NCBI GenBank assembly: GCA_951406725.2
Contig: OX597822.1
Location: 17,112,001 to 17,176,000, forward strand
Direction: 5' to 3'
Length of the DNA stretch: 64,000 nucleotides
DNA from: Octopus vulgaris
Taxonomy: Eukaryota
The notes beneath the pieces were generated by a model that did not search any database, was not told the DNA's origin, and worked only from the letters and a program-made list of their open reading frames with translations. Of the stretch, positions 10,589 to 21,321 are shown piece by piece. Made by a program: the position numbers and the translations under genes. The stretch's first letter is position 1; each line of letters opens with the position of its first letter.

Positions 10589-11003
10589 TTATTTTATTAT
10601 AAAAAAAAATTTTTCTTGTAACGTCCGAACTAAAACATCTCTCATTTTTGATTTAAAATCTTCATACCATTGAATGAAATGCCTTCGACGATTTGCTTTC
10701 TGTACTTGGCTCATTGCTGCCTCTTTTTCTAAAAGAGCAGGCAACTCACTCCAGTGTTTAACATAGATAAAAGGTGCTTTGCTTTCTTTTAGCAGCCGTA
10801 GAGGAATATTTTTGGACGAAACTGAATGGCCGCAGTTTCCAGAGGTCATTACATCTTCGACAACTGGAAGAGATCCATAAGATAATGCTTCATATATTCT
10901 GTAGCACTCAGTATTTACTCCAACAGGACTAAGTGTCAAATCACTTTGGGCTAGAGACCGCAGGTAATCGTCACGAGAATCTTCAGTTTCCTTAGGGCTC
11001 CAC
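10589..11003 (-). CDS. RXYLT1: Terminal coding exon of ribitol-5-phosphate xylosyltransferase 1 (TMEM5) orthologue
   Basis: Translates to (E)[58 protein letters not shown]...PLRLLKESKAPFIYVKHWSELPALLEKE...QWYEDFK. This matches the vertebrate RXYLT1 C-terminus as I recall it ([40 protein letters not shown]). Acceptor ctactgcag|G at 11004/11003; TAA stop at 10589-10591. The N-terminal part of the listed ORF (11004-11131) is intronic. Confidence 0.95.
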
Positions 11004-11185
11004 CTGCAGTAGGAGTAATAATAATAATGAATAAATAATAATAATGATGATGAGGATAATGACAACAACAATAATAGTAACAATAATAATAGCGTATCTT
11101 TGAAAGAAATGGAGAAAGTCTTAAAATACAAAATCTCTAAATAGAGATAACTCTAATATAGAAAACTGAAAACAGAAACAATCCC

Positions 11186-14649: not shown

Positions 14650-16139
14650 TTCTGGTTTCAATAGTTGGATTTTCTTTGCACAGTCCTCTGGAAGTCCAGT
14701 CACACACACACACGTGCATGCATGCACGTGCCTGGGTGTTTGACCTCACCCACGCAGCTTGACAACTTGTGTTGCTCTGTTCATGACTCATAACTTAATG
14801 GTTCAACAAAAGAGACAGTTAGAACACGAAAATCAGTTCTGGGTCAATTTGGTCTACAAAACTGCTCATAGTTGCAGTCCAGAGACTGAGATGAGTAAAA
14901 GAAAAACATGGATTCAGTTCATCTTCATCTTCAAATAAAGATATTTTTCTGATAATCTCTGATTTTTGAAACTATATCCAACATAAAGGAATCGTAGACT
15001 GAATATGGTTTCAATAAAGAAATACAATCAAGACAGCATCATCAGCATGCTGAGTTCAAATGCTGCCAGGTTTGCCTTTACGTTTCATCCTTTGGAGTCA
15101 ATAAAATAAGTACCAGTTGAATACTGGGGTTGATGTAATTAACTTACCCCTCCCCACAAATTAGAGATCAATACACAAATACTGCATATTTAAAGCATCT
15201 TAGATATTAACGTAATTCCAGTTCTAATCCTTTTAACAGGCATGGATACTGTAGATCATTCTAAAGATGACAATCTGATCTCAGCACTTTCACTGTAGTA
15301 GTTTCACTTCTCCTAATGAGATATTATGAAATACCTGTAGAATTCTTTTGTAATCATAATAAATCTGGTCAATTAAGGCAGAAACAGCAAATGCAAATAT
15401 TGCAATGTAAATTACGCTGAAAGTGACTCAACACAAATTTGCAAATGCAATTATGAGTGTAAATGAATTATACATGTAAATAAATTATCTGTAAATTAAT
15501 TAAGGAATTAATGAGACATGCAGATTTTCTCATTATGTGTTTTTCAAAACTTGTTGCCAGTCATTTGAACAAAGATGCTTTGATGAAAACAAAGCCTTGC
15601 CATCATAAACTATGCATTTTATACACAGAGTATGCTTAGGATTATCTTTGTTGCATAATTTATAAAGGAACAAGCAGTTTACATACATCATCAGATTGTT
15701 CTTCATGTTAATAACATGCATACTTATAATTATATTAATGTTTTCAATAGAGCTTTAAAATAATTCTCAGACATTTTTTGGTAACAGATGGAGAAGTATT
15801 GTCAGCTTCAAAGTTTTCAACTTGCTCATTGAAAAGAACAAATCCGTTATTTTCATGTCAACATTTTATCGTCATTATTGCTGCTGTTGTTGATATCACT
15901 ATTAAAGGTAACAAGAATCACCAGAGTACTGGGAAAAAAATGTGCTCTGTTTATTTCTTCTGGTTCTTTACAACTAAATGCCACAAAGATTAACTTTGCC
16001 TTTCATCCATTTGGAAGGATGGGGGAGGGGGTCAATAAAATAACATACCAGTCATGTAATTGAATTGATATTGACTAACCCTAACCCCCCCCCCAACTGC
16101 CAGGTTTCTTCTACCTATTCTAGAAACAATTATTATGTT

Positions 16140-16421
16140 CTATATACAAGAGATGAGGAATTATGTACATTATGCCCACGGGCATATGGTGCAGTCGTTA
16201 AGAGTGCAGGCTACTAACCCCAAGATTCCAAGCAGTGACCTGAATAATAATAATAATAATGATAATGATAATAATAATAACATCGAAAAATACCTTAGGA
16301 ATGAGGGCCCAGGTTTGAAATTTCCCCAAGACACCTGATAAAGGCTGGAGGGTATATCAGCTGAAACATTGTGTTAACAACAAACAAGTTGATGACAAAA
16401 TCCGTCAATTGTAAATAATGT
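16140..16421 (+). mobile_element. Short retroposon with tRNA-like A-box head, internal (AAT)n and Penelope-type hammerhead-like 3' module
   Basis: 12-bp direct repeat AATTATTATGTT at 16128-16139 and 16422-16433; A-box-like TGGTGCAGTCG at 16187-16197; hammerhead-like motif at 16330-16375. Confidence 0.7.
16330..16375 (+). ncRNA. Degenerate minimal type I hammerhead ribozyme motif
   Basis: GACAC-CUGAUAA-A-GGCUG(10-nt loop)CAGCU-GAAAC-AUU-GUGUU. Stem I is GACAC/GUGUU and stem II is GGCUG/CAGCU. Core is CUGAUaA...GAAA, i.e. G8>A in this copy. Confidence 0.6.
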
Positions 16422-16558
16422 AATTATTATGTTTTCGTTACTCTGCACCAATTGTTGGCGATGTGTTACAGTGTCAGCTGTTCACTGCCAGTTTAGCAGG
16501 ATAGAAGTTAAAGCCAATCTCATTGAGATAGGAATTTAGAATTCAAGAGACAAAAACT

Positions 16559-17020
16559 AGGTGCAGGTGTGGTAAGTAGCTTGCTTACCAACCACATGGT
16601 TCAGGGTTCAGTCCCCCTGCATGGCACCTCAGGCAAGTGTCTTCTACTACAGCCTCGAGCCAACCAAAGCCTTGTGAGTGGATTTGGTAGGTGGAAACTG
16701 AAAGGAGCCCGCTGTGTGTGTGTGTATGTTTGTGAGTAAGTGTATATGTTTGTGTGTGTGTGTGTATATATGTTTGTGCGTGTATATGTTTGTGTACATG
16801 TCTGTGTGCGTGCGTGTTTGTGCGTCTGTGTTTGTCTCCCTATCATCGCTTGACAACCAACACTGGTGTGTTTATGCACCCATAACTTAGTGGTTCAGCA
16901 AAAGAGACCGATAGAATATGTACTAGGCTTACAAAGAATGAGTCCTGGAGTTGATTTGCTTGACTAAAGGTGGTGCTCCAGCATGGCTGCAGTCAAATGA
17001 CTGAAACAAGTAAAAGAATA
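16559..17020 (+). mobile_element. Near full-length CORE-type tRNA SINE with internal (TG)n
   Basis: tRNA-like head (tgtggtaagtagc...ggttcagtcc), CORE-like ggcacctcaggcaagtgtcttctactacagcc, and 3' tail ggtgctccagcatggctgcagtcaaatgactgaaacaagtaaaagaat. Confidence 0.8.
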
Positions 17021-20491: not shown

Positions 20492-21321
20492 GGTCTGATC
20501 AATAAGAATCCACACTATCGCCATAGTAACAAAGCTAAAGCATGCAGAGTGAAGCTGCTTGACACAGATTGGTCTTGAACTCTGCTGTACATGCACACTA
20601 AGTTTTAACATTCTACCTCACCTCCACTGTATACAGCAGTGCTTGGAAGGAAGATGTGTAGCTTGTGATCGTCGCAATGACCATGACAGAGGAAGTTAAG
20701 CAGAGAATCTGCATCAGCGACCTACACAAAGTTTTCAAAATGTTTCCATCGTTCTCAACACAATGGAGATCTTGTGCAACTGAAACCCGAGTGTCTTGTC
20801 GGTCAGCTGAAAGCAGTTTTGGCACAAACTTGGCAGACACGCATCTCAAACCCAAATCTTCAGTGATAATGGACTGAACTGAACCATAACTCATCTGCAC
20901 ATCCTCTGATAACTCACAGGTGGTGATTTGACAATTTCCCCCAACAGCTATATGCTCATCTGCAATGTATTTTTCAGTTCTGCTGGTTGTGGATCTCTCA
21001 GAGCGTTCATTAATATCAACATTTTTTTGGCCATCTTGGAAACATCTGAACCCCTCGTACACTTGTGTGTGGATCATAGACTCCTCATATACTTTCTGCA
21101 ACTTTGTATAGGCCTCTGAGCAGGTATCGCCATGACAACTTTCTCTGTGATGGTCAATGTGACAATCACACACTATACACTTTGTTTCCAAGCACTGCTG
21201 TAAACAGCAGGAGTGAACAGGACTGTTAAAACTTAGTGGGCATGCACAGCAGAGATCAAGGTCAATCTTTGCCAAGCAGCTTCACTCTGCATGCTTTAGC
21301 TTTGTTACTATGGCAACAGTG
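20487..21321. mobile_element. Non-autonomous mariner derivative with ~98-bp inverted repeats and transposase N-terminal relic
   Basis: Inverted repeats at 20513-20610 and 21224-21321. Mariner-like terminus TA-GATGGTCTGATCAATAAGAATCC at 20487. Minus-strand translation contains the HTH region ...ELSEDVQMSYGSVQSIITEDLGLRCVSAKFVPKLLS (WVPHxL-type motif). Confidence 0.85.

Follow-up and report, generated by a model that had tools for sequence, protein, structure and literature searches.

A tRNA-like head with A and B boxes in the pseudo-LTR of an octopus Penelope/Poseidon-type element

A short insert in a 64,000-nucleotide stretch of Octopus vulgaris DNA (the window) is a 5'-truncated pseudo-LTR (pLTR) of a 2.66-kb Penelope/Poseidon-type element, and the unusual part of that element is a tRNA-like A/B box segment inside the pLTR. 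The assignment of the insert to the pLTR of a Penelope-like element (PLE) is nearly certain. Judged from sequence, the short copies of the family are SINE-like products of the PLE's own pLTR and form no separate family, and RNA polymerase III (Pol III) probably makes their templates from the tRNA-like promoter. The hammerhead, the tail, the inversion and the 5' palindrome are known PLE traits. A first-pass annotation had recognized a Penelope-type minimal type I hammerhead, mobilization by a PLE, an inverted tail and a probably dead copy, all of which stand; its independent SINE family does not.

The insert measures 282 bp (16140-16421) and, as first described, lies between perfect 12-bp direct repeats (16128-16139 and 16422-16433), for which two matches in the window compare with 0.12 expected and none of 100 shuffles reaches two. 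The end of the leader, TACATTAT (16166-16173), is indeed the reverse complement of ATAATGTA (16415-16422) at the 3' end of the element. The suspicion that the leader is an inverted 3' extension was borne out, in that 16137-16173 matches the minus strand of the family's own extension with 94.6% identity (positions 280-316 of the majority unit described below). Both the last A of the element and, at the left junction, GTT are shared with the direct repeats, so that the true duplication may measure 9-12 bp. The fold-back noticed at the junction is present, with five of its seven base pairs (TGCCC/GGGCA) native to ORF-linked copies and two derived from the junction. The parts of the insert are as follows.

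16128-16139, no strand: left target-site duplication (TSD), of which the last 3 nt fit the inverted tail too
16137-16173, minus strand: inverted arm, consisting of the 31-nt PLE tail plus a few nt (ORF codons ~39-51 backwards), ending at the distal start site
16173-16184, plus strand: native 5-bp hairpin, present in ORF-linked copies, and 5' boundary of the direct arm; putative RNA 5' end
16180-16240, plus strand: tRNA-like head, nearest to tRNA-Arg among the sampled tRNAs; B box deleted between 16223 and 16230
16187-16197, plus strand: A box, with three changes relative to the family majority
16243-16281, plus strand: (AAT)n microsatellite of the pLTR
16301-16420, plus strand: first 40 codons of the PLE ORF, in this copy interrupted by a stop at codon 6 and frameshifted further on
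16330-16375, plus strand: minimal type I hammerhead within the ORF
16330-16334/16371-16375, plus strand: hammerhead stem I, with core at 16335-16341, stem II at 16343-16348/16357-16362 and GAAA at 16363-16366
16370, plus strand: predicted cut after this position, with G8A at 16340 and CpG decays at 16362 and 16368
16415-16422, plus strand: short 3' end, equal to the proximal start site 122 nt into the ORF in the arm-end samples
16422-16433, no strand: right TSD

Three neighbours of the insert were seen in the window. An exon for the RXYLT1 C-terminal domain lies at 10592-11152 on the minus strand (Pfam PF24785, E 1e-60); the insert, 5 kb upstream of it on the same strand, is possibly intronic. 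At 16555-17000, starting ~120 nt past the insert, there is another repeat that looks tRNA-headed, has a middle rich in (GT)n and is unrelated to the first; it presumably resembles abundant octopus SINEs. A 222-aa frame at 20613-21281 on the minus strand looks by eye like a mariner transposase remnant and has no Pfam match at E<=0.01.

The identity of the parent element rests on copies that extend beyond the insert. In some of these, the pieces upstream of the element are the end of a coding frame. With this ORF-end piece as query, 2085 candidates were found, and 29 of the 30 loci fetched run on into the element, in part or in full. Walking further upstream reveals a reverse transcriptase (RT) frame and an endonuclease-like (GIY-YIG-like) frame, with a match to Pfam RVT_1, and the "tail" continues into the ORF N-terminus in two loci (L072 and L090); the ORF-start region is present in 355 candidates. 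The majority sequence, built from ~190 fragments with one homopolymer set to its commoner length (7 versus 3 copies), is a 2664-nt repeating unit in the order ORF end, tRNA-like head, (AAT)n, and ORF start with hammerhead and tail. Its 835-aa RT-endonuclease (RT-EN) ORF begins at the ATG equal to window 16301. An autonomous PLE sharing the tail had been anticipated by the first-pass annotation, and the tail does run into the start of this ORF; the same unit contradicts the proposal of a separate SINE family borrowing a PLE, since the whole element, including the tRNA-like head, is the pLTR of the autonomous PLE. Partial tandems occur at loci L096, L097, L100 and L114; with the inverted pairs and the 31-nt tail described below, they agree with the pattern of EN+ Penelope/Poseidon elements, in which partial tandems give rise to pLTRs, 5' copies are inverted and a tail of 30-40 bp is optional.

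The majority ORF carries YVDD at 536 and then a GIY-YIG-like motif near 730, with two Cys at ~732-734 and His at ~753 and 770 (CCHH). The Pfam GIY-YIG profile has no match in the copies from this genome and a precomputed match in a few homologs, and a PDB sequence search returned no matches. The CX2-5CxxC linker, described as a mark of Neptune and Nematis (PMC8557442), has no match in the majority ORF. With RT before EN, CCHH present and that linker absent, the architecture is that of Penelope/Poseidon, the clade being assigned from architecture alone. Homologs of the ORF number 2923 at E<=1e-20, and its N-terminal motif is also found in the relative P0003.

The element is a high-copy repeat. 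A search gave 4015 candidates, of which 40 were scored, with near-full-length matches 81-90% identical. Exact matches number 4372 for a 20-mer of the head and 11230 for a 22-mer behind the hammerhead, with 0 for controls; rough scaling with an assumed divergence gives ~11,000 head and ~28,000 hammerhead-side segments. Identity to the majority never exceeds 95.4% in matches of at least 600 nt (median 92.7%, n=104), so that no young copy is seen. Two pairs of nearby loci (L128/L129 and L501/L503) have near-identical junctions or flanks, are probably local duplications after insertion and slightly inflate counts. The ORF end, the head and the hammerhead are covered by contigs of four runs whose labels name four other organisms. 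Family contigs occur in four runs guessed to be RNA, but contigs as such show neither starts nor ends nor level.

The tRNA-like head sits after the ORF stop and before the start of the next ORF. Scored against 30 tRNA loci of the genome, which cover only 8 anticodon labels, it does best with tRNA-Arg(TCG) at L418 (49/73 identical, z 7.8). A distance of 34 nt separates the A and B boxes, and 84 of 142 segments have both in canonical form; where a box is lost, the change is mostly at a CpG site. The family therefore has the tRNA-derived head with A and B boxes of a tRNA-derived SINE (SINE2). The acceptor stem of the head is unpaired; ARAGORN reported 0 tRNA genes in 32 loci, and Rfam did not call the head a tRNA. 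A pattern search found no A/B-box pair in 80 related loci, the pattern being strict and its failure weak evidence of absence. The tRNA-like, A-box-bearing head without a B box noted in the window copy results from a 12-nt deletion that removed the B box, which is intact in the family majority. This form accounts for 20 of the 4372 head matches, on mixed backgrounds, so that a B-box-less subfamily was rejected in favour of sporadic loss.

Two side observations concern the surroundings of tRNA-like sequence. Within majority unit 19-57 (window 16173-16199 plus an upstream part found only in long copies), the stretch immediately before the hairpin is an imperfect inverted copy of the tRNA-like 5' end, as if the head had entered the PLE via the element's own fold-back route. 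Separately, tRNA genes or copies at six loci (L425:1500-1640, L407, L418, L430, L432 and L433) share the same short sequence straight after the T-run. At L425 this sequence continues as the 3' part of a common repeat that is also found near window 16970, which possibly reflects an element targeting Pol III terminators.

The 5' ends of copies indicate where templates may have begun. Relative to the tRNA-like +1 (window 16180), the first 100 of the 4372 exact head matches, all in the first 73 Mb of one chromosome, have 55 ends at -7 to +3, 23 at +5 to +29, 22 at -19 to -775 and none at -18 to -8. The pile spans 11 nt and lies 4-14 nt before the A box. In a second sample, comprising 98 of the first 100 matches of the downstream 22-mer (two were not recovered) from the start of the same chromosome, 18 of the 27 segments that reach the site end there. 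A type 2 Pol III promoter would place its start here. Pol III would then start at about window 16173-16180.

An ordinary Penelope pLTR with a Pol II start, in which the tRNA-like segment would be a passenger left from the old capture of a SINE or a tRNA piece, is an unlikely alternative that would attribute the pile to TATA-directed initiation or to fold-back at the hairpin. A TATA-like motif, TTTATAA, does lie ~29 nt upstream of the pile and could explain the ends. An AT-rich box at -30 suits Pol III too, and no initiator-like motif was seen at the site by eye. The integrity of both boxes in the family majority also argues against a passenger, as does the position of the pile where a type 2 promoter would put it. 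PLE pLTRs are described as holding the start site together with 5' palindromes (PMC3846280, PMC8557442), which suits the Pol II view. The fold-back form is also seen as a loose-end consensus in runs X16 and X17. For fold-back as the cause of the pile speak the 12 of 55 pile ends at -7, the position into which fold-back would merge several ends. Against it, a control hairpin with a similar 5 bp at unit 169-180 stops only 5 of 83 segments, and plain junctions pile at the site too: element sequence upstream of the end is undetectable at 15 of the 55 pile ends, and 11 of these 15 show no fold-back by eye.

Among 69 exact tail-to-ORF junctions, six direct arms end at -8 to +3 and none further upstream, so that RNAs from the pile site ran into the ORF, as far as unit 661 (L350). 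Evidence against a single start comes from four of 30 similarity-ranked ORF-start loci and one inverted arm (L362), which pass upstream of the site; longer, multimeric or read-through templates therefore existed. Ahead of the main ATG, the majority has an upstream ORF of two codons (unit 44-52, window 16186-16194) that overlaps the A box and bears on the translation of transcripts starting at the pile. As a separate observation, ~25 of the 98 5' ends in the second sample fall in the (AAT)n tract of the pLTR, often joined to the (AAT)n-like tails of other repeat families (L468, L469, L477, L479, L494, L498, L507, L510, L511 and L340); this suggests microsatellite-guided targeting or 5' joining.

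The content of T4 runs, which serve as terminators, is suggestive of Pol III transcription as well. The majority unit has no T4 runs and no TTTNTT or TTNTTT. The probability of zero T4 is 0.007 under a mononucleotide model, 0.007 under a third-position model, 0.028-0.029 under synonymous shuffling and 0.086 under a first-order Markov model; it is 0.010 under synonymous shuffling with near-terminators included. The controls were the 31 of 80 related loci that hold a motif-bearing ORF of at least 400 aa (49 were dropped), and they are single copies from other organisms whereas the tested unit is a majority sequence. T4 is present in 30 of the 31; depletion down to P<=0.03 occurs in no control, and the rate is 1.6 T4 per kb in the five controls whose T content is at most 22.5%. 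None of the control ORFs being as T4-poor speaks against the Pol II start, in favour of which it can be said that P rises to 0.086, that one of the 31 controls also lacks T4 and that G4 runs are absent from the unit too. In the controls, G4 is mostly below expectation and T4 above it. A second Poseidon family that could serve as a T4 control was not found in this genome, all 30 fetched loci being of the same family. Low Phe content was considered as a sign of T avoidance and rejected, given that 2.4% is inside the 1.7-5.1% range of 82 homologs.

Without a terminator in the unit, transcription from this promoter could extend across the entire ORF and across tandem units. It is possible, as a tentative extension, that the autonomous PLE is itself run by Pol III, having captured a tRNA-derived promoter and purged T4 from its 2.66-kb unit, with full-length or multimeric RNA used as template and perhaps as an uncapped mRNA for the 835-aa enzyme, and with short SINE-like copies spreading in great numbers from that promoter as well. 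Selection would favour avoiding T4 even if Pol III RNA served as template only, with the protein made from Pol II read-through. Should Pol III make the full ORF RNA, this would run counter to the usual view that Pol II is indispensable for autonomous retrotransposons, and the translation of an uncapped 2.7-kb RNA would call for an explanation.

Whether the short copies have masters of their own was addressed with 265 segments pooled from ranked and unranked loci. Short and long copies are not told apart by any of eight variant sites (p 0.07-1). The variants 101A and 203A are linked in a subfamily (p 8e-12); 203A was counted in 19 of 76 long copies and in 14 of 70 short ones (p=0.55). A short-copy-only subfamily had appeared in the first set, with 10/45 versus 0/19 at site 203; it was gone in the larger set and was rejected. 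Since the variants are common to both, the short copies look like products of the same masters, although some secondary amplification from solo short copies may have occurred. A lineage or head distinct from that of the partner, as expected of a SINE2, was not found: the head is part of the autonomous unit and the subfamily variants are shared. Nor do the sampled short copies form the head-to-tail arrays of retrozymes, being solo or inverted apart from one short tandem (L030).

An independent tRNA-headed, hammerhead-bearing SINE family with its own masters, borrowing a PLE, is accordingly very improbable. It could draw on the dominance of short copies (78/100 head segments start at or after -7, and 69 exact tail-to-ORF junctions compare with 4372 and 11230 pLTR matches), on the retention of both boxes, by which short copies could be re-transcribed, and on a non-CpG divergence slightly lower in short copies (4.4% versus 5.8%). 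The location of the head within the autonomous element and the eight variant sites largely refute it. If Pol III drives the pLTR, an autonomous element would have a route to make its own SINE-like offspring, which blurs the split between SINE and partner. Automatic pipelines may file such short pLTR copies as SINEs.

The manner of integration is recorded in the arms of the copies, which end 122 or 153 nt into the ORF. From 210 loci (30 of them similarity-ranked, one counted twice), 104 inverted pairs were obtained, of which 96 have one long and one short arm, seven have two short arms and one has two long arms; ~50% mixed pairs would be expected (p 1e-20). TSDs scoring at least 8 were called for 24 of the 104 pairs versus two in a shifted control, with a mode of 12-13 bp; the search is strict, and the 80 pairs with no call are not thereby TSD-less. 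A tail on exactly one arm is what twin priming at two start sites predicts. The window insert is the minimal case of the family's integration, with the tail arm inverted and a direct arm that runs from the 5' pile to the short end.

In the proposed sequence of events, an RT-EN dimer would cut both DNA strands ~12 bp apart and start priming at two internal positions of a single RNA, which lie 122 and 153 nt into the ORF. One cDNA would reach the RNA 5' end while the other would stop early; microhomology of 1-3 nt would connect the two, in many cases following fold-back at the native hairpin. The 96/104 split, counted in genomic copies, supports twin priming at two sites during Penelope integration, which the in vitro work of 2024 did not settle. 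Also seen at the short end are one to three tandem copies of a 9-nt unit (for example at L014, L019, L026 and L101), a frequent feature that suggests RT slippage or re-priming at the proximal start site.

The hammerhead is, by its predicted structure, an ordinary minimal type I of the Penelope kind, with the core intact in the family majority. The majority has the CUGANGA and GAAA core with an extra A after position 9, G10.1-C11.1, a NUH site, a 6-bp stem II, a 5-bp stem I and an ACGU palindrome without a loop 3. The letters of the ribozyme are in the window as the first-pass annotation wrote them, and the three reversions proposed there are the family majority: position 8 is G in 246 of 262 segments, and for the two CpG sites the figures are 77% and 71%. 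The window copy departs from the minimal type I core at G8 (G8A) and has the two further CpG decays. Since it also has no B box, it is likely dead, as had been thought. The whole core is kept in 65 of 194 segments, and the sole common non-CpG core variant is at free position 7. In the 80 related metagenome loci, 11 hammerhead motifs with unlike stems were found versus 0.05 in Markov controls; both stems pair in 10 of 21 core-only matches, and because pairing is part of the search rule the evidence is the comparison with controls.

Rfam returned no hammerhead or tRNA match on the element, six better copies and the window. The single-strand folding z lacks significance (-1.46 for the hammerhead of the window), and co-folding gives a minimum other than the hammerhead dimer; neither result bears on activity. 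Six of 98 5' ends lie beside the predicted cut (unit 234-237), two of them counting as one event, but the site also carries an 8-bp palindrome. To cut, the hammerhead would have to act as a dimer or with the protein, and it seems not to define most templates.

Known systems account for most of these features. Metazoan PLE hammerheads have been described with the core, stems and palindrome of the octopus family majority, and the octopus ribozyme does not differ from them in any respect given in that account (PMC4209133). The closest functional parallel is PAc, a Poseidon element of Anolis carolinensis (PMC11167929), which likewise has a single RT-EN ORF, AT-rich targets, a predicted dimer, two RT start sites and a hammerhead overlapping the ORF start. 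The first of its internal start sites, which define the tail, is 111-118 nt into the ORF, compared with 122 in the octopus family. The PAc ribozyme is reported to cut only with protein and to be dispensable in vitro. The sections of the PAc report considered here do not mention a tRNA-like segment or Pol III promoter, and the one-tail-per-insertion split differs from that work in being counted from genomic copies. The Penelope element of Adineta vaga (PMC3846280) shares an ~840-aa ORF, a pLTR with the first codons and a 31-bp tail on one inverted pLTR, and its 8-10-bp TSDs and palindromes at pLTR 5' ends, there read as self-priming, also resemble the octopus family. It differs in its TATA and initiator-like promoter and low copy number, and A/B boxes are not mentioned in the parts of the paper compared. 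A fixed start inside the pLTR is described as normal for PLEs, with TATA/Inr-type or intron-linked promoters (PMC3846280, PMC8557442).

Short hammerhead repeats offer a second comparison. Schistosoma Sm-alpha and Sj-alpha (PMC6765202) are also short dispersed repeats with a Pol III promoter followed by a hammerhead; they are described as stand-alone SINE-like tandem repeats, and the portion consulted names no parent ORF. Non-LTR retrozymes (bioRxiv 10.64898/2026.07.22.740005; PMC7761336) are likewise short, hammerhead-bearing, non-autonomous and related to PLE pLTRs. As presented in those sources, they are tandem arrays that make circular RNA, whereas the octopus short copies are solo or inverted and carry a tRNA-like head besides their TSDs; the main text of the retrozyme preprint does not contain the word "tRNA".

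The putative tRNA-derived promoter in a PLE pLTR is the unusual part. The family could already be described in Repbase or Dfam entries, supplements or subscription journals, and it may overlap with the three octopus SINE families of 1994. The titles and opening lines of abstracts that were searched yielded no PLE with a tRNA-derived Pol III promoter, and the sections seen of two cephalopod repeat papers (PMC13282606, PMC8967140) and a mollusc SINE paper (PMC4758252) do not mention one. A small-RNA-derived Pol III promoter in a terminal repeat is known already, by the account in PMC10886601, from non-autonomous LTR elements, namely Cassandra, Helenus and Ajax ("TRIMp3"), where it is thought to come from a SINE insertion. 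Those elements measure 0.3-1.3 kb, and the author argues that their autonomous partners must use Pol II, whereas the octopus carrier is an autonomous PLE with a 2.5-kb ORF. If Pol III drives the octopus pLTR, the idea developed for Cassandra and Helenus would extend to Penelope elements.
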